Positions 4,453 to 63,010 of a stretch of DNA of 64,000 nt are shown here, piece after piece (the first letter of the stretch is position 1; the number at the start of each line of letters is the position of its first letter). The notes beneath the pieces are model-generated. The model was not told the DNA's origin and made no database searches. It saw only the letters and a list, made by a program, of their open reading frames with translations. The stretch lies in the IMG/VR virus record IMGVR_UViG_3300009183_000045; one strand, 5' to 3'. A program made the position numbers and the translations under genes. The stretch is from a virus (Duplodnaviria; Caudoviricetes).

Positions 4453-6222
4453 ATGTCTTTCTTATTTGCCCAGCGCAGGAGTTTTTCGAATTCTTTGTCC
4501 GTCAAAGGCCTCGGAACATTTAATAGAATTGCAGCGACCGACGGCTGTTCTTTGGCTCTTAAAAGTGATGGCACATTAATTGGATGGGGAATTGGCCCTC
4601 ACCTTATCATTCCTTCTAGTGCTAATTCAGGGGTGGTGGACATTAAAGTAAGCCAGCAAGGTTGTTTGGCTCTTAAAAGTGATGGTTCAGTGATAGGATG
4701 GGGCACTAATTGGTATGGTGAATTCACCATTCCTATTGGAGTTAGTTCTAAAGTGGTGAGTATTTCCCTGGGCGGCCATCATTCTCTAGCTCTTAAAAGT
4801 GATGGCACTGTAGTTGGCTGGGGGGATAATAGTTACGGCCAAATTACTATTCCTTCTAGTGCCACTTCTGGTGTGGTGGCTATTGCTTGTGGGTATTACC
4901 ATTCTCTAGCTCTTAAAAGTGATGGATCTGTAATTGCCTGGGGATTTAATAATTTTGGTCAAACCACTATTCCTATTAGTGCTAATTCTAATGTGGTTGC
5001 TATTGCTGCAGGTGGCTTCCATTCTCTAGCTCTTAAAAGTAATGGCACTGTAGTTGGCTGGGGGAGCTATGTTTATGGAGAGCTCGCCATTACAGATTCT
5101 AATGTGGTGGCTATTGCTGCTAGTGGGAATGTTTCCTTGGCTCTTAAAAGTGATGGCTCTGTAATTAGTGCCGGACAATGGGCGTTCTACAACGCCAATA
5201 CCAATCAAATGTATTATGTCGGGGTCACCAATCCCACTAGTGTTAGTTCTGGCGTGGTTACTATTGATACCTCTAGTCGAAGTTGTTTAGCCATTAAAAG
5301 TGATGGCTCTATAATTGGTTGGGGGGATAATAGTGTCGGCCAAATTACTATTTCTACTACAACCCTTTCTAGAGCAGCCTGTGCAAAAAGAATTGCTGCT
5401 GGCCGCACCCATTCTCTAGCTCTTAAAAGTGATGGATCTGTAATTGCCTGGGGATTGAATAATTTTGGTCAAACCACTATTCCTTCTAGTGCCACTTCTG
5501 GTGTGGTGGCTATTGCTGGCGGCTGGCGCCATTCTCTAGCTCTTAAAAGTGACGGCTCTGTAATTGCCTGGGGAGATAATTTTTATGACCAAACTACTAT
5601 TCCTTCTAGTGCCACCTCTGGTGTGGTGGCTATTGATTGTGGGGATTACCATTCTCTAGCTCTTAAAAGTGACGGCTCTGTAATTGCCTGGGGATATGGT
5701 GTTGACGGTCAAACCACCATTCCATCCAGTGCCACTTCTGGTGTGGTGGCTATTGCTTGTGCCCAATATTATTCTCTAGCCCTTAAAAGTGACGGCTCTG
5801 TAATCTCCTGGGGGCGTAATAGTGTCGGTCAAGCCCCCATTCCATCCAGTGCTGCTTCTGGTGTGGTGGCTATTGCTTGTGGCGTCGAGTATTCCATGGC
5901 CCTTAAAAGTGACGGCTCTGTGATTGGTTGGGGAATCAATATTTACGGGACGTCACCCGTTATTCCATCCAGCGCGCTTTCTGGTGTAGTGGCTATTGCT
6001 TGTGGTGGCAACCATTATCTAGCACTTAAAAGTGACGGCTCTGTAATTGCCTGGGGATATAATAATTATGGTCAAACCACCATTCCATCCAGCGCACTTT
6101 CTGGTGTAGTGGCTATTGCTGGCGGCAGCGAGCATTCCATGGCCCTTAAAAGTGACGGCTCTGTAATTGCCTGGGGAAATAATAGTAGTGGTCAAACCAC
6201 TGTTCCAGCATCTTTAACTTAA
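4453..6222 (+). CDS. RCC1/BLIP-II repeat protein, 14 repeats (likely two 7-bladed propellers)
   Basis: 14 copies of (H)SLALKSDGSVIAWG within roughly 40-aa units. Confidence 0.85.
   Translation: MSFLFAQRRSFSNSLSVKGLGTFNRIAATDGCSLALKSDGTLIGWGIGPHLIIPSSANSGVVDIKVSQQGCLALKSDGSVIGWGTNWYGEFTIPIGVSSKVVSISLGGHHSLALKSDGTVVGWGDNSYGQITIPSSATSGVVAIACGYYHSLALKSDGSVIAWGFNNFGQTTIPISANSNVVAIAAGGFHSLALKSNGTVVGWGSYVYGELAITDSNVVAIAASGNVSLALKSDGSVISAGQWAFYNANTNQMYYVGVTNPTSVSSGVVTIDTSSRSCLAIKSDGSIIGWGDNSVGQITISTTTLSRAACAKRIAAGRTHSLALKSDGSVIAWGLNNFGQTTIPSSATSGVVAIAGGWRHSLALKSDGSVIAWGDNFYDQTTIPSSATSGVVAIDCGDYHSLALKSDGSVIAWGYGVDGQTTIPSSATSGVVAIACAQYYSLALKSDGSVISWGRNSVGQAPIPSSAASGVVAIACGVEYSMALKSDGSVIGWGINIYGTSPVIPSSALSGVVAIACGGNHYLALKSDGSVIAWGYNNYGQTTIPSSALSGVVAIAGGSEHSMALKSDGSVIAWGNNSSGQTTVPASLT
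4771..6210 (+). repeat. Coding tandem repeat of about 120 bp (RCC1 blades)
   Basis: Near-identical cattctctagctcttaaaagtga(t/c)ggctctgtaattgcctgggg units; 120-bp spacing is clearest at 5401-6200. Confidence 0.9.
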
Positions 6223-36119: not shown

Positions 36120-36142
36120 TTCCGCCAATTTAAATGTATTAT
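36120..36142 (+). promoter_or_regulatory. TTCCG-N12-TATTAT promoter variant
   Basis: 6 nt before ATG 36149. Confidence 0.6.
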
Positions 36143-36148
36143 AGAGTT

Positions 36149-37153
36149 ATGAAATTAGCAGTCATTGAAAAAATTAATGAACTTCTTCCTATTGAAGGAG
36201 CAGATCGTATTGAATTGGCAGTGGTCCAGGGATGGAAGGCAGTTGTTAAGAAGGGTGAATTCGAAGTAGGACAAATGGTGGTCTTCATTCCTATTGATAC
36301 CGTTATGGAGCCCAGACATTGGAATGAATTCCTCTGGGACAAAGAAGACCCTAGCAAACCCATCAGAGTAAAGACCGTCAAACTTCGAGGACAAGTATCT
36401 CAGGGTCTTGTGTTCTCCGTTAAAATCACTGGTACTATCTGGCAAGTGATGGGCAATGATGTTTCCGAGACTTTAGGAGTTACCAAATATGAACGCCCGA
36501 TTCCAGCTAGCTTGCAAGGTGAAGTGAGAGGTAGTTTCCCTTCTCACTTGATCAGTCGGACAGATGAAGATAATCTCCTGTCCAATATTAAGGTCTTAGA
36601 AGAGTTGAAAAAAAGTGACTATGTCCAGGTAACTTTAAAAATGGATGGTAGTAGCATGACCGCTCTTAAAACTGCAGAAGGAGAATTTCATGTTTGTTCG
36701 CGCAATTTAGATTTGAAAGAAACAGAAGAGAATTCTTTCTGGAAAGCAGCTAGAATGTATAATCTAGAAGAACAGATTGAACCCGGCACTGCCTTCCAGT
36801 TTGAACTGTGCGGACCTGGAATTCAAAAAAATCTAATAGGATTAAAAGAATTAAGTTTATATTTGTTTAATGCCAAGAACCTTTCATCTGGAGAATACTT
36901 CAACCCAGTATTCAGGCCCAACGAATCGACTATAAAAAGTGTTCCACTTGTTAAGTCTTTCACTGCTGGAGAGATCCTCCAGTTGACTACAGAAGAATTG
37001 CAAGAATTGGCCAATAAACAAAAGTATCCAAGTGGTCTTCCTGCTGAGGGTATTGTTATAAGAGGATTTGATAGCGAAGGTAAATCTAGATACAGCGAGC
37101 ATTTGCAAAAGATGTTAAGTGTTAAGATTATTAATCAAAATTACAAAGATTAA
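36149..37153 (+). CDS. RNA ligase, DRB0094/Rnl2-like family
   Basis: N-terminal IEGADRIELAVVQGWKAVVKKGEF; motif I KMDGSS; FELCG; EGIV. Confidence 0.85.
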   Translation: MKLAVIEKINELLPIEGADRIELAVVQGWKAVVKKGEFEVGQMVVFIPIDTVMEPRHWNEFLWDKEDPSKPIRVKTVKLRGQVSQGLVFSVKITGTIWQVMGNDVSETLGVTKYERPIPASLQGEVRGSFPSHLISRTDEDNLLSNIKVLEELKKSDYVQVTLKMDGSSMTALKTAEGEFHVCSRNLDLKETEENSFWKAARMYNLEEQIEPGTAFQFELCGPGIQKNLIGLKELSLYLFNAKNLSSGEYFNPVFRPNESTIKSVPLVKSFTAGEILQLTTEELQELANKQKYPSGLPAEGIVIRGFDSEGKSRYSEHLQKMLSVKIINQNYKD

Positions 37154-45666: not shown

Positions 45667-46366
45667 GCCTCTTATATTAGTCTACACAGATCATCCAATG
45701 TGTAGTATCGATTGTGCTGATGCTACTTATGAAGTATTGAGTAGATCTGGTCTTTATGAGGTCAGAATGATTGGACCCAGTTCTTATCCTTATTTAGAAT
45801 TTAATAAAGAAAACATCTCCCTCGCAGCTAGTTTAGTTTTTCCTGGTGGTTTAGGAGATGCAGATCAATTTGATGAAAATCTTATAAACCACAAACAAAT
45901 GGTTTATGATTATGTTGCAGAAGGTGGCGCCTATCTAGGCATATGCCAAGGTGCTTACTTTGCTAGTAAACACTATTTTGATCTCCTAGGAGATATAGAA
46001 GCTGTACAGCATATTAAAAGACCGAAAGCCTCTACTCGCAAGAGTGGTCCTGCCATTGTACCTTTGACTTGGAGAAACTCTGGACCACATTTAACATACT
46101 TCCATGACGGAGCTTCTTTTGTCGCCACAGAAGGGAGAGAGGAAGCGTGTTATGCTACCATACATGCGTTTTATGAGAACGGAGATGCTGCTGCTCTCAT
46201 ACAACACCTATGGAAGGGGTCTATTGGAGTTATCGGCCCTCATCCAGAAGCCATGCGTTGGTGGTTCTATTCTCAGTCACAGGTGCTTGAAGGGTGGAAA
46301 AATCCTCTGCAGCATGATTTGCTGCTGGACTTTGTCAATCATTTACTATATCCTCATAGTGTATGA
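45659..46366 (+). CDS. Class I glutamine-amidotransferase-like (BPL_N-type) protein
   Basis: FPGGLGD, GGAYLGICQGAY (nucleophile elbow), GPHPE. Confidence 0.75.
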   Translation: MNKPLILVYTDHPMCSIDCADATYEVLSRSGLYEVRMIGPSSYPYLEFNKENISLAASLVFPGGLGDADQFDENLINHKQMVYDYVAEGGAYLGICQGAYFASKHYFDLLGDIEAVQHIKRPKASTRKSGPAIVPLTWRNSGPHLTYFHDGASFVATEGREEACYATIHAFYENGDAAALIQHLWKGSIGVIGPHPEAMRWWFYSQSQVLEGWKNPLQHDLLLDFVNHLLYPHSV

Positions 46367-47487
46367 AAATTGAACTTCCTGATTCAGATCAATTCAATCT
46401 CAAAGACTGTATCATCGCGGGAGATGAATGTGTACTCATTACCCCTAAAGGTATGGACGTAGAATGGAACGATAAAAATAAAATATTTCGTTCTTCTATC
46501 TGGCGCAAATCTGACATGCACCCTATCAGTTTAGGCTTTAAAAAGTTCAACAATATGGGTGAAAAGCCTTTATTTGAACCCAACGACAACGACACTGATT
46601 TAGAGTTTATGCGAAAAGTGGATGGCAGTCTACTTATTGTCTCTCAATATAAAGGAGAGCTTATTGTTCGTACTAGAGGTACTACTAATGCAACTCAATT
46701 ACCTAACGGCCATGAAATTACTATACTCAAAGAAAAGTATCCAAGAGTGTTTGATAATCTATGGCTTCAGTCTGAAAATTATAGTTTGTTGTTTGAATGG
46801 ACTACTCCTACTAATCGTATAGTTCTTAAAGAAAGTGAAGAACCGACTTTATGGTTAATTGGTATTGTAGCTCATAAAAACCCATCAGATGATACTTTTA
46901 TGATGTTTATGGGGGTTACTCAATTTTCTTATAGATACTTTACGCAATTCGAATTAGATCAGCAAGCTATCTTTCTAGAAGTACCCCGGCCAGAAAGATA
47001 TGAACTAAATCTTTTAAATGTATCTGAGTATCTTAAAGACAAAGAATCTATTGAAGGTGTGGTCATTTATAGCAACAATGGTCAGACTCTCAAGAAGGTC
47101 AAGACTCCTCGATATCTGTATATGCATCGAGTGTTCACTGGAGTAAAGACTGTAGATCATTTATTTGATTTATTTGTAGAGTATGGACAACCTCAAAGAG
47201 AAAACTTTGAAGCTCTATTAGCTACTAATTTTGATTGGGAGTTAGTTGTTGCTTTAGCTCCTCTAATGGATGAGCTATATAATAAGATTAGATTGATTAC
47301 GTATAAATTAATGCAGATATCTGTATTTTTAATTAATCCAGATTTTATAGCTTTAGACCGTAAAGGAAAAGCTCAAAAGATTCTTCAGCAGTTCCCTAAT
47401 GATTCTGGGATTGCTTTTGCTTTACTAGATAGCAAAAAGATTCCTCCTCACAAACTTTGGGAGACGTTCAAGCAACACCTTGAGTAG
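46363..47487 (+). CDS. RNA ligase, T4 Rnl1-like
   Basis: GFKKFNNMGE, KVDGSL (motif I), FEWTTPTNRIVL, EGVV, KVKT. Confidence 0.8.
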   Translation: MKIELPDSDQFNLKDCIIAGDECVLITPKGMDVEWNDKNKIFRSSIWRKSDMHPISLGFKKFNNMGEKPLFEPNDNDTDLEFMRKVDGSLLIVSQYKGELIVRTRGTTNATQLPNGHEITILKEKYPRVFDNLWLQSENYSLLFEWTTPTNRIVLKESEEPTLWLIGIVAHKNPSDDTFMMFMGVTQFSYRYFTQFELDQQAIFLEVPRPERYELNLLNVSEYLKDKESIEGVVIYSNNGQTLKKVKTPRYLYMHRVFTGVKTVDHLFDLFVEYGQPQRENFEALLATNFDWELVVALAPLMDELYNKIRLITYKLMQISVFLINPDFIALDRKGKAQKILQQFPNDSGIAFALLDSKKIPPHKLWETFKQHLE

Positions 47488-48112: not shown

Positions 48113-48118
48113 TATTTA
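48113..48118 (-). promoter_or_regulatory. T4-late-like promoter TAAATA
   Basis: 6 nt before ATG 48106. Confidence 0.6.
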
Positions 48119-48738
48119 TGGATGTGATGTATAAATTCTCAGAAGAAGATTATGATAAATTGTTTGTCACCTCAGACACACATTTTAACCATGATAAAGA
48201 ATTTGTATGGAATACAAGAGGCTATTCTAGTTCTCTAGAGATGACAGATGATATGATTGAAGTCATTAATAAAACAGTTGGAGAAGATGGTACTCTTTTA
48301 CATCTAGGTGATTTCTGCTTAAACACTAGCACAGAAATGTATCGGAATATTCTACAACGTCTCAAAATTAAAGCAATCTGGATGCTCTGGGGTAATCACA
48401 ATAACCCTATTCAAAAAAGTTATGGAGGAAGGGTAGAACAGATTAATGCCTTTCATGGTCCCTTGTATATCAAATATCTCCAACACTATTTTACATTTCG
48501 TCGAGGCAAGAAAACATTTGTTTGTTTGCATTATCCCATGAGAATATGGGATGGAATGTATCACGGAGCCATGCATTTGTGTGGTCATAGTCACGGTTCA
48601 TTAGAAGTTTCTAGACCAGAAAATAAAATCTACAAGATATTAGATTGTGGTTGGGATATCCACAAGAAGCCATTGACAATGAAAGAAATTGAAGATATAA
48701 TGAATACGAAAGAAATTAACAATTTACACCACGTATGA
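48118..48738 (+). CDS. Calcineurin-like metallophosphoesterase
   Basis: SDTHFNH, HLGDF, GNHN, HYP, GHSH. Confidence 0.85.
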   Translation: MDVMYKFSEEDYDKLFVTSDTHFNHDKEFVWNTRGYSSSLEMTDDMIEVINKTVGEDGTLLHLGDFCLNTSTEMYRNILQRLKIKAIWMLWGNHNNPIQKSYGGRVEQINAFHGPLYIKYLQHYFTFRRGKKTFVCLHYPMRIWDGMYHGAMHLCGHSHGSLEVSRPENKIYKILDCGWDIHKKPLTMKEIEDIMNTKEINNLHHV

Positions 48739-49244: not shown

Positions 49245-49403
49245 ATGAATGATGAACTAGCTGAAATGTATTCGGAATGGCTTGCAGAACAAAATTTAGT
49301 CAAAGCTTGGGATTACGCAGAAGAGCACACTCTAAGAGATGATTCTCCGGAAATCTTAGTGACGCCAGATTGGTCCACCTGGTGCCAACAACTTTGTTCT
49401 TAA
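49245..49403 (+). CDS. 52-aa hypothetical protein
   Basis: Read by hand (MNDELAEMYSEWLAEQ...). Confidence 0.5.
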   Translation: MNDELAEMYSEWLAEQNLVKAWDYAEEHTLRDDSPEILVTPDWSTWCQQLCS

Positions 49404-49412
49404 TCCTTGAAC

Positions 49413-49435
49413 TTCCCAGCTGAATCCTTTAATAT
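49413..49435 (+). promoter_or_regulatory. TTCCC-N12-TAATAT promoter
   Basis: 7 nt before ATG 49443. Confidence 0.7.
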
Positions 49436-49442
49436 TAACACA

Positions 49443-49709
49443 ATGAAGAACACAAATCCAAACCACCACGACATGTATACTCTTGAACATTCCTTTAAAA
49501 CCTCCTTTATTGATGCTGCACAATCTGTAGTTTCCTGGAGAGAGCCTCTAGAAGATCTCCTTTCAGAATATATCACCGAAGCTGAACACCAAGAAGGAGT
49601 TGGTTACTGGGACCAGTTTGATAGTGTCTCAGATGCTGTAGAAGATTTTACGAGGTTTGTTTCCTTCTGCGAAAATTCTGATAGTAGTAATCACGCGTTT
49701 GAACTGTAA
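49443..49709 (+). CDS. Hypothetical acidic protein
   Basis: ATG 7 nt after a TTCCC-N12-TAATAT promoter. Confidence 0.6.
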   Translation: MKNTNPNHHDMYTLEHSFKTSFIDAAQSVVSWREPLEDLLSEYITEAEHQEGVGYWDQFDSVSDAVEDFTRFVSFCENSDSSNHAFEL

Positions 49710-49729
49710 GTAAAATTCAAATATATTAA

Positions 49730-49829
49730 CCTCTAGTAACTCAGTTGGTAGATCTAGTGCTCCCTCATGGTTAAGGGCCAAAATGCCGGGATAAAGCGCT
49801 TGCCGTTGGTTCGAATCCAACCTAGAGGA
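49730..49829 (+). tRNA. Atypical tRNA-like gene with a 33-nt anticodon loop
   Basis: Acceptor CCTCTAG/CTAGAGG plus A73; D-loop AGTTGGTA; perfect T-arm GTTGG-TTCGAAT-CCAAC; anticodon stem GTGCT/AGCGC; no encoded CCA. Confidence 0.7.
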
Positions 49830-49839
49830 TCTCTTTTAA

Positions 49840-50499
49840 ATGATTACATTCTCTTCTCAAATTTTTAATCTTTCAAACCAACATTTATCCGTTGTTCTGT
49901 TGTGTTCTAGTGGTGTAGATAGCATTGCAGCTTCCCATTATTTTATTAATAAGTTTCAAGATACAAGAAGTATTGCTCTCTTACATTTCAATCACAATCT
50001 TCGAAAACAGAATATTGAAATGGAATATTCTTTTGAAAGATTTGCTAGAACAACTTCTGTACCGTTTTATATTGAAAATCTAGAATGTGGAGATGGTACT
50101 GAAGATTCCTGTCGCCAAGCTAGGTTGGAATATATCAAATCATACAAAGACACCATCTTCATTACAGCTCATCATCTTGATGATTGTGTAGAGAGTTATC
50201 TTCTCAACTGTATTAGAGGTAAAGAAGGATTTCTTCCTATCCCCTTTCAAACAGAAGTAGGCACCAATTTCATCAACAGACCCTTTCTTCTTAGTCGGAA
50301 GCAGGATCTATTAGAATACACCCACAAACACAACCTCCTCTCATACATTGTAGAAGATGAGACAAACATTCAGGTAAGAGGAAGTAGAAGGAATTTACTA
50401 AGAAATAAGATTATTCCTCTGTTAGAAGAAGAAAGAGTAGGTCTCTCCACTATTGTTAAAAAGAAGATTATGGAAAGGTTAAATATCTCATGTACATAG
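49840..50499 (+). CDS. tilS: tRNA(Ile)-lysidine synthetase, catalytic domain only
   Basis: SSGVDS (PP-loop), HFNHNLR, CRQARL, TAHHLDD, RPFL, EDETN, RNLLR. Confidence 0.85.
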   Translation: MITFSSQIFNLSNQHLSVVLLCSSGVDSIAASHYFINKFQDTRSIALLHFNHNLRKQNIEMEYSFERFARTTSVPFYIENLECGDGTEDSCRQARLEYIKSYKDTIFITAHHLDDCVESYLLNCIRGKEGFLPIPFQTEVGTNFINRPFLLSRKQDLLEYTHKHNLLSYIVEDETNIQVRGSRRNLLRNKIIPLLEEERVGLSTIVKKKIMERLNISCT

Positions 50500-51020
50500 A
50501 AGAAACCCTTTTGCCGGAAGTAAAAATATATACTCCAAAACGTTTTCAAGATGAAAGAGGATTCTTTTTTGAAAGCTTTAATCAAAAATATTTTAAGGAA
50601 TATACATTTGTTCAAGATAACCATTCTTGTTCCTCTAAAAATGTAGTGAGGGGGTTACATTATCAATTAGTTAAACCACAAGGCAAACTTGTTCGAGTTG
50701 TGGCCGGATCTATCCTAGACGTTGCGGTGGACATCAGAAAGTCTTCTCCTACTTTTGAACAATGGGTTTCAGTAGAGTTGACAGCAGATAATGGAAAACA
50801 ATTATGGGTACCACCAGGTTTTGCACATGCATTCATGGCACTAGAAGATAACACTCAGGTGCTTTATAAAACCACAGAATATTGGTATAAAGAATATGAC
50901 AGATCTATCCGTTGGAATGATGAACAACTAGGCATAGCCTGGCCTAATTTAGATTTGGCAATACTTTCTCAAAAAGACTTAGAAGCCCCTTTTTTATCAA
51001 AAGCAGATCTATTTGATTAA
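50490..51020 (+). CDS. rmlC: dTDP-4-dehydrorhamnose 3,5-epimerase
   Basis: DERGFFFES, QDNHS, RGLHYQ, DVAVDIR, PPGFAHAF. Confidence 0.95.
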   Translation: MYIEETLLPEVKIYTPKRFQDERGFFFESFNQKYFKEYTFVQDNHSCSSKNVVRGLHYQLVKPQGKLVRVVAGSILDVAVDIRKSSPTFEQWVSVELTADNGKQLWVPPGFAHAFMALEDNTQVLYKTTEYWYKEYDRSIRWNDEQLGIAWPNLDLAILSQKDLEAPFLSKADLFD

Positions 51021-62902: not shown

Positions 62903-63010
62903 CCAGAGAGCGTGGGCGAAAATGCCCTGCGTAGCCACGCTTACTTTCGCGAGTCCTGCTTGGGGCACTGCTGTTGGGACTCCTCGCTATAGAGCGAACC
63001 ACCTCTCTGG
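62903..63010. ncRNA. Candidate GC-rich structured ncRNA (four-way junction with possible pseudoknot)
   Basis: 65 of 108 nt are G/C; four perfect stems; intergenic. Confidence 0.6.

Follow-up and report, generated by a model that had tools for sequence, protein, structure and literature searches.

Clusters of tRNA genes carried by phages are now regarded as weapons against tRNA-cutting nucleases of the host. The tRNA cluster of phage T4 ends with two small stable RNAs, rnaC and rnaD (also called species 1 and 2), and we know of no function for either of them. The bacterial Y RNA YrlA, another tRNA-like RNA, is permuted, ends at the anticodon side and carries a Ro-binding stem. In Lak megaphages the tRNAs themselves contain short introns, described as "enigmatic", for which insert-less alleles exist (Devoto et al. 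2019, PMC6784885). In this study, we analysed a 64,000-nucleotide stretch of DNA (hereafter the window; IMG/VR record IMGVR_UViG_3300009183_000045) which, on the basis of its tail-fibre and baseplate families and of the runs containing it, comes from a large tailed phage from fresh water. Its plus strand carries a tRNA-shaped gene (49730-49829), directly upstream of a short tilS gene, in which 35 nt stand in place of the 7-nt anticodon loop. We found that this gene recurs in related phages under strong selection, and we consider it somewhat more probable than all other readings together (about 0.55) that it encodes a non-decoding tRNA-like small RNA, in which a tRNA elbow would provide stability, a terminal helix would close the molecule and the 35-nt module would be read by a partner.

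The gene folds as a tRNA, and the acceptor stem, D-loop, imperfect D-stem, perfect T-arm and enlarged anticodon loop described in an earlier reading of the window (the original prediction) are all found in its letters. Seven base pairs join CCTCTAG (49730-49736) to CTAGAGG (49822-49828), which is followed by A at 49829. With the -2:74 pair of the family added, the terminal, acceptor-like helix spans 49728-49736 on its 5' side and 49822-49830, including positions 73 and 74, on its 3' side, and CCA is not encoded after it. In the window itself, -1:73 is an A.A mismatch and -2:74 an A-T pair. The D arm (49739-49754) has the loop AGTTGGTA with G18 and G19, and its stem consists of two Watson-Crick pairs plus A10.C25 and C11.U24, both flagged as non-pairs in the Rfam alignment. 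The 5' strand of the anticodon stem, AGTGC (49756-49760), pairs with GCGCT (49796-49800), as indicated by alignment and covariation, and encloses the anticodon-arm module (49761-49795). A possible sixth pair, T49761-A49795, gives the register GTGCT/AGCGC, so that the stem closes either 35 or 33 nt. The T arm (49805-49821, GTTGG-TTCGAAT-CCAAC) matches the tRNA consensus perfectly, with one compensatory pair in the copy of contig L089. The elbow nucleotides of a tRNA, U8, A14, G18 G19 and the T arm, are invariant across copies.

The tRNA-like RNA sits at the borderline of tRNA detection, which should be kept in mind by annotators. The Rfam tRNA model (RF00005) matches 49730-49829 from end to end with 30.4 bits, just above its gathering score of 29, the anticodon region, of 9 nt in the model, occupying 37 nt here. 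Orthologous copies score 28.6 bits (G002, G004) and 25.2 bits (G001, G003), so that two of the three versions scored fall below the threshold. Default ARAGORN called no tRNA in the whole 64-kb window and remained silent in the window when introns were allowed at the normal threshold; a call appeared only at a lowered threshold, as a Leu(CAA) tRNA with a 30-nt intron at 33/34, which we judged implausible. Beyond the borderline tRNA match Rfam holds no family for this RNA, and literature searches found no description of it; the family appears to be undescribed.

Twelve distinct DNA versions of the gene (alignments A1 and A3; some of the tests below cover 11 copies) were found in freshwater phage contigs, together with four metatranscriptome contigs. 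An exact search of IMG/VR with 29 nt of the insert returned two contigs in which the interior is identical and the acceptor stem is altered by compensatory changes; a metagenome scan with a 19-mer added 13 loci, and protein look-ups added two relatives near-identical to the window. A probe made from the unusual D arm matched insert-bearing contigs only, so that no allele without the insert came to light. The exact IMG/VR search with the 3' end (T arm and acceptor) found nothing, because the acceptor stems differ between copies. No match to 49400-50600 was found by blastn among deposited phage genomes; the 19-mer gave two chance hits among genome contigs, neither matched by the family model; and that model, applied to five large viral records with a TilS or a ligase, added no member. 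The metagenome 19-mer hits L085, L090 and L092 were set aside as chance, each lying within an apparent protein-coding frame by translation.

Among the 11-12 distinct copies, 98.6% of the pairing cells are paired, compared with 88% in shuffled alignments, and the covariation score of 0.395 (0.174 in shuffles) was reached by none of 500 shuffles and collapses when the partners are slid by one column. Seven pairs have changed on both sides, five of them in the acceptor stem, one in the anticodon stem and one in the T stem; in the anticodon stem, the doubly changed pair occurs as GC, UA and AU, and two others are altered on one side. Recurrence in 12 distinct DNA versions, together with covariation in the acceptor, anticodon and T stems, goes far beyond chance and identifies the locus as a genuine, strongly conserved and selected small RNA gene, in keeping with the tRNA-shaped gene of the original prediction. 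The case named there as contrary, a unique and unstructured insert in a decaying pseudogene, did not occur, since the insert is near-invariant in the 12 versions. Same-anticodon ordinary tRNAs of G002 and G003 are mostly 56-77% identical, only those for Asn and Gly reaching about 95%, whereas the interior of the tRNA-like RNA is near-invariant. By this yardstick the interior is under unusually strong constraint.

The most conserved part lies where a tRNA carries its anticodon. Thirty-one of the 35 module positions are identical in all copies seen, and the changes consist of 49768 T>A (in two contigs, L088 and L097), 49784 T>C (in one RNA contig), substitutions at 49792 and 49793, and a 1-nt insertion after 49791; positions 49792-49793 accordingly read TA, TC, CA or TTA. 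As had been noted before, the insert can pair with itself: TCCC (49761-49764) with GGGA (49788-49791), and GGC (49776-49778) with GCC (49785-49787), the latter having 49769-49771 as an alternative partner. The observed changes fall on unpaired positions in a bulge-helix-bulge-like model and in a three-way-junction model alike, and two of them disrupt pairs present in the minimum-energy fold. In a test for an antisense target, the module was no more complementary to the remainder of the window than shuffled controls were, and a mini-ORF or tmRNA-like tag (AUG CCG GGA UAA behind the Shine-Dalgarno-like AAGGG) was rejected because its stop is not conserved.

As a separate observation, a GC-rich structured RNA candidate lies at 62903-63010 of the window (minimum free energy -48.5 kcal/mol, z = -3.2). 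Its hairpin at 62914-62926, GGGCGAAAATGCC, equals GGGCCAAAATGCC of the module at 12 of 13 positions on the same strand, with 0.05 such matches expected by chance. Searches of the four carrier phages and of IMG/VR did not find this candidate, and no conclusion was drawn on the shared hairpin.

Several features set this RNA apart from tRNAs that decode. CCA is encoded in none of 11 copies but in 45 of 59 ordinary tRNAs of the same contigs (Fisher p = 2e-6). Position 73, the discriminator of a tRNA, is A, C or T, and it pairs with -1 in 9 of 12 copies (UA, AU or GC); -2 pairs with 74 in 10 of 12, likewise with three pair types. The terminal helix extends past 7 bp by a median of 2 (range 0-4) and by 8 in the metatranscriptome variant X27, an RNA contig with 15 consecutive terminal-helix pairs, whereas of 86 control tRNAs 63 show no extension, 22 an extension of 1 and one an extension of 2 (Mann-Whitney p = 2e-6 against the family). 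A typical terminal helix of the family thus has about 9 bp, constrained only to pair. Such free drift of the acceptor sequence is not expected of a tRNA with a fixed amino-acid identity, and the pair G-1:C73 that marks tRNA-His is present in only 2 of 12 copies, so that a His-type identity was discarded. All bases of the D arm are invariant in the 12 copies, and the D stem retains both mismatches in every one.

Nor does the module yield an anticodon loop by simple removal of an insert. When all 7-nt products that join a stretch from the 5' end of the loop to one from its 3' end were enumerated, the sole conserved product was UCCCU+AA, with the anticodon CCU and C33, and no single excision gives a 7-nt loop with U33 and a purine at 37 that is conserved in all aligned copies. 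The two Ile-type loops that had been envisaged fare no better: CC-GAT-AA would use the variable positions 49792-49793, so that its "anticodon" would change from copy to copy, and CC-CAT-AA would need two separate deletions and includes T49768, which is A in L088 and L097. Taken together, these features make it probable that the RNA only looks like a tRNA and serves some purpose other than decoding.

The body of the RNA resembles that of a particular tRNA. The best matches of the family model outside the family are two tRNA-Lys(UUU) genes (46 and 42 bits), which share with the RNA the cloverleaf outline and the elbow nucleotides; the T arm is identical to that of the tRNA-Lys of G003. One of the two is the gene of locus L123 (1170-1911), a normal tRNA-Lys(UUU) located 8 nt upstream of a tilS whose product is 66% identical to that of the window. 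It thus occupies the slot held in the window by the tRNA-like RNA, and the D-arm start TAACTCAG is common to the two. From these matches and the shared slot, it is reasonable to suppose that the RNA probably derives from a phage tRNA-Lys-like gene, in the tRNA slot that abuts tilS in this lineage.

The window's tilS (49840-50499, +) encodes a short phage TilS-type PP-loop protein of 219 aa. It scores 95.3 bits with TIGR02432 (cut-off 93.6) and E 4e-26 with PF01171, and the SGxDS-type motif is present as SSGVDS. With NF007942, the model of full-length TilS, the score is 58 bits (cut-off 606) and the alignment is confined to the first 205 model positions, in agreement with a protein consisting of the N-terminal catalytic domain and lacking the C-terminal tRNA-binding domains. 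The RNA starts 20 nt after the upstream ORF, and the ATG of tilS follows it after 10 nt. Relatives of this TilS in other phages often adjoin a tRNA(CAU). A functional link between the RNA and tilS, which this arrangement had suggested, was nevertheless abandoned: no TilS was found in four RNA-carrying records, including a CheckV-complete 227-kb genome, and the tilS of L123 has an ordinary tRNA-Lys(UUU) in the slot. As far as comparison of these loci can tell, tilS is a neighbour and not a partner, its adjacency being an accident of one lineage, and annotators should not take the two for a pair of substrate and enzyme.

What does accompany the RNA is a conserved island made up of a BPL_N-like ORF, an Rnl1-type ligase, a calcineurin-type phosphoesterase, small ORFs, a 100-aa ORF and a tRNA array. 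In the window, the Rnl1-type RNA ligase lies at 46363-47487 (+; PF09511, E 3e-14). Each of the four IMG/VR carrier records has an orthologue, 65-73% identical, at a distance of 1.7-4.4 kb from the RNA, and the synteny is conserved, which bears out the proposed linkage with ligase and phosphoesterase. The metallophosphoesterase, a candidate RNA end-healing enzyme, is at 48118-48738 (+; PF00149, phrog_547) and is 56-69% identical in G002, G003 and L107. The 100-aa ORF (49407-49709, +; 73-74% identical in G002 and G003; 15 protein clusters) stands at the head of the tRNA array in relatives, being followed by tRNA-Leu or tRNA-Met in L114, L115, L117 and L118. The four IMG/VR carriers have arrays of 13-18 tRNA-model matches, and the RNA lies within these or borders on them; no ordinary tRNA occurs in the window. 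In L091 the neighbours of the RNA are a tRNA at a distance of 4 nt and a phage tmRNA at 17 nt. A ligase-based search for loci in IMG/VR returned contigs already known plus L107/L109 only, whose ligase is 87% identical and whose 28.9-kb contig contains no copy of the RNA.

The complete, uninterrupted RNA is present in contigs of four metatranscriptomic libraries from four studies, in four different phage backgrounds. For a 1-kb stretch of the window itself, no RNA library was found among the runs containing it. No spliced joints were found in these assembled contigs, from which rare forms are dropped; contigs alone establish neither transcription nor lack of splicing.

These observations suggest how the locus may work. 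It would give rise to a small RNA of about 100-104 nt, stable and shaped like a tRNA but not decoding, which descends from a phage tRNA and belongs to the phage's island of tRNA and RNA-repair genes. The elbow (U8-A14, G18 G19 and the T-loop TTCGAAT) would let the RNA fold, be handled and be stabilised as tRNAs are, the terminal helix of about 9 bp would close the molecule, and the invariant 35-nt module on the anticodon stem would be the working part, read sequence-specifically by a protein or RNA partner. Such an RNA would be expected to be processed by tRNA enzymes and presumably escapes aminoacylation. Because its body is tRNA-Lys-like and its place beside RNA-repair genes is fixed, the most likely role would be to mimic a tRNA where phage and host contend over the cutting and repair of tRNAs. 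The RNA would then act as decoy or adaptor towards a factor that recognises tRNAs, which might be an anticodon nuclease of the host or, on the phage side, the ligase and phosphoesterase themselves. We put forward the decoy role in particular only tentatively, and regard it as considerably more doubtful than the non-decoding nature of the RNA. Of the three options in the original prediction (a mini-intron tRNA, a decoy for host anticodon nucleases, a repurposed tRNA-like RNA), a repurposed tRNA-like RNA or decoy fits best.

Several points weigh against this reading. Most copies were fetched with a probe internal to the insert, which inflates the apparent invariance of the module, and the independent D-arm probe reached just four IMG/VR contigs. 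The module varies too little to show covariation, and at least two fold models fit its few changes. The metatranscriptome evidence consists of assembled contigs, which can neither show the ends of the RNA nor exclude DNA carry-over, and the relatedness of the carrier phages means that their synteny lends no independent support to a functional link. Furthermore, the adjoining ligase and phosphoesterase are exactly what a splicing route would require, and related phages hold tRNAs with 23-30-nt inserts in the anticodon loop, for which a route of removal may exist.

The last two points lead to the alternative that the gene encodes an intron-bearing pre-tRNA, in which a host or phage endonuclease would cut both bulges and the phosphoesterase, kinase and Rnl1-type ligase would heal and seal the ends, yielding a decoding tRNA with the anticodon CCU and C33, or with CAU in an enlarged loop. 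The module can indeed be drawn in a bulge-helix-bulge-like form: the anticodon stem (49756-49760/49796-49800), a 4-nt bulge (49792-49795), a 4-bp helix (49761-49764/49788-49791), a second 4-nt bulge (49765-49768) and a helix (49769-49771/49785-49787), with the observed module substitutions confined to the bulges or the apical loop. The ligase and end-healing genes are syntenic with the RNA, and a second ligase gene (phrog_968) lies at 36134-37153, about 10 kb upstream of the Rnl1-type ligase, so that the window holds two RNA ligases. However, the bulges have 4-5 nt instead of the 3 nt of archaeal/eukaryal-type bulge-helix-bulge introns, even though a 4-bp central helix can be drawn; excision leaves no conserved canonical loop, the bulge rule giving neither U33 nor a purine at 37 and T49768 being variable; and the insert is more conserved than its "exons", with no insert-less allele found. 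An EndA-type endonuclease (PF01974) is absent from the four carrier records, including the complete 227-kb genome, while archaeal controls match. The lack of an encoded CCA, the paired and variable position 73, the terminal helix of about 9 bp and the broken D stem likewise do not suit a tRNA about to decode. We therefore consider this route unlikely, and the mini-intron tRNA matured by phage enzymes that the original prediction had put forward as one possibility was not upheld, as neither a spliced form nor an insert-less allele nor an EndA-type endonuclease was found in carriers. Protein-dependent splicing is poorly supported, and its fullest version, a phage pre-tRNA spliced by proteins in a yeast-like heal-and-seal manner with the adjoining phosphoesterase and Rnl1-type ligase and serving as an unorthodox decoder, seems rather improbable. 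Self-splicing was rightly discounted from the outset, because an insert of 28-35 nt is far too small for a group I intron, with its ribozyme core of about 200 nt or more; an Rfam scan found no intron match for the insert.

The inserts of other phage tRNAs, one set of which has sequences identical across cohorts (the Lak introns, PMC6784885), deserve description in this connection. In L101, a 104-nt tRNA (5926-6029; G003:C1:38925-39028) has a normal acceptor stem and an encoded CCA, and its anticodon stem closes 36 nt; this folds as a continuous helix of 18 bp, and the 5' end of the loop (TTTGAGA) and its 3' end (CTTATAA) both look like an anticodon loop. A tRNA(CAU) close to tilS in L073 (16-111, -) and L080 (2338-2433, -) has a 23-nt insert (CTCAT...AA) whose removal would leave a canonical loop. 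The same holds for a tRNA-Thr(UGU) of L002 (146-246, +), in which an insert of about 29 nt pairs with the anticodon. The L073/L080 case would speak for a splicing route, as would the Lak introns; on the other hand, these insert-bearing tRNAs mostly fold as long continuous helices, unlike the RNA described here.

A second alternative is that the element acts in cis, as an entry site for RNase P or RNase E or as a punctuation mark, with no function as a free RNA; in the window its helix might also occlude the ribosome-binding site AGAGGA of tilS. Tight packing (20 nt after the upstream ORF, 10 nt before tilS), the pairing of leader and trailer, the lack of an encoded CCA and the position of the Shine-Dalgarno-like AGAGGA within the 3' strand of the helix would all suit this idea. 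Punctuation, however, would require neither an invariant 35-nt module nor invariant unpaired bases; the downstream neighbour varies by phage (ORF, tRNA or tmRNA), leaving no common regulated gene; and the equivalent spacer of L123 has no Shine-Dalgarno-like sequence. A purely cis-acting role is thus quite improbable. It is highly improbable that the gene is a decaying tRNA pseudogene, or that its conservation comes from an antisense small protein (ORF 49629-49820, minus strand): the borderline Rfam scores given above, the L089 copy mismatched in two stems and the one reverse frame open over the conserved core in all copies are outweighed by three helices maintained through compensatory changes, which exclude a pseudogene, by an interior better conserved than most real tRNAs of the same phages, and by an antisense frame with unrelated flanks and no conserved start that runs into the antisense of neighbouring tRNAs and whose amino acids are altered by the substitutions that do occur.

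Some features of the surroundings may be mentioned for their own sake. A sigma-70-like match (TTGAAC, 17 nt, TATATT; 49699-49727) ends 2 nt 5' of the RNA; seven such sites were found in the region against 5.6 expected, which is not above chance, and the match is not conserved in other contexts. The tmRNA of L091 (3751-4175, -) lies within the tRNA array and scores 98 bits in Rfam. Finally, tRNAs with Met/Ile-type anticodons (CAU, UAU) and long, class II-like variable arms, 91-94 nt in length, recur in several phages of the group (L101 4701-4793; L102 1427-1517, -; L114 5063-5153; L001 2030-2123).

Among known systems, the canonical tRNA is the obvious point of departure, from which the RNA differs in its 35-nt module, the lack of a usable anticodon, the broken D stem, the paired position 73 and the missing CCA. 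The Lak introns and the inserts of L101, L002 and L073/L080 are similar in being short, placed in the anticodon loop, too small for a ribozyme and highly conserved between phages. They differ in that their removal restores a normal loop and that one of the tRNAs (L101) encodes CCA, whereas the tRNA-like RNA has the insert in every copy, does not end as tRNAs do and cannot be brought back to a canonical loop. Like the tRNA-like domain of tmRNA, the RNA has a degenerate D arm and a helix replacing the anticodon loop. A mini-tmRNA was nonetheless rejected, as pair 3:70 is UA, CG or GC and never G3:U70, Rfam gives no tmRNA match, no tag frame is conserved, and the only in-frame stop (UAA, 49792-49794) is lost in L086 and L087. 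T4 rnaC and rnaD are also small stable RNAs at the end of a phage tRNA cluster, and rnaC ends in a tRNA-type T arm with weak acceptor-like pairing; they are longer (139 and 119 nt), lack the D arm and the anticodon-stem framework, and the family model gives only 10.9 bits on rnaC, so that, as an analogy, the likeness is one of position and kind and extends neither to sequence nor to the model. The bacterial Y RNAs of Rsr-RtcB operons, YrlA among them, are non-decoding RNAs with a tRNA-like elbow that are linked to RNA-repair enzymes (PMC7824862). A YrlA-type particle was ruled out here by the absence of a TROVE/Ro gene (PF05731) from the four carriers, where control genomes match, and of any Rfam Y RNA match. 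Set beside these systems, the locus would represent a new and strongly selected RNA family, located beside RNA-repair enzymes in a tRNA cluster, that is tRNA-shaped and probably cannot decode. Splicing of the RNA, were it to occur after all, would show that bacterial viruses possess protein-dependent tRNA splicing. Should the RNA instead mimic a tRNA, whether as decoy, as adaptor or as a scaffold carrying a 35-nt effector module, it would add a new player to the tRNA-centred conflict between phage and host and provide a natural counterpart of the engineered "tRNA scaffold".

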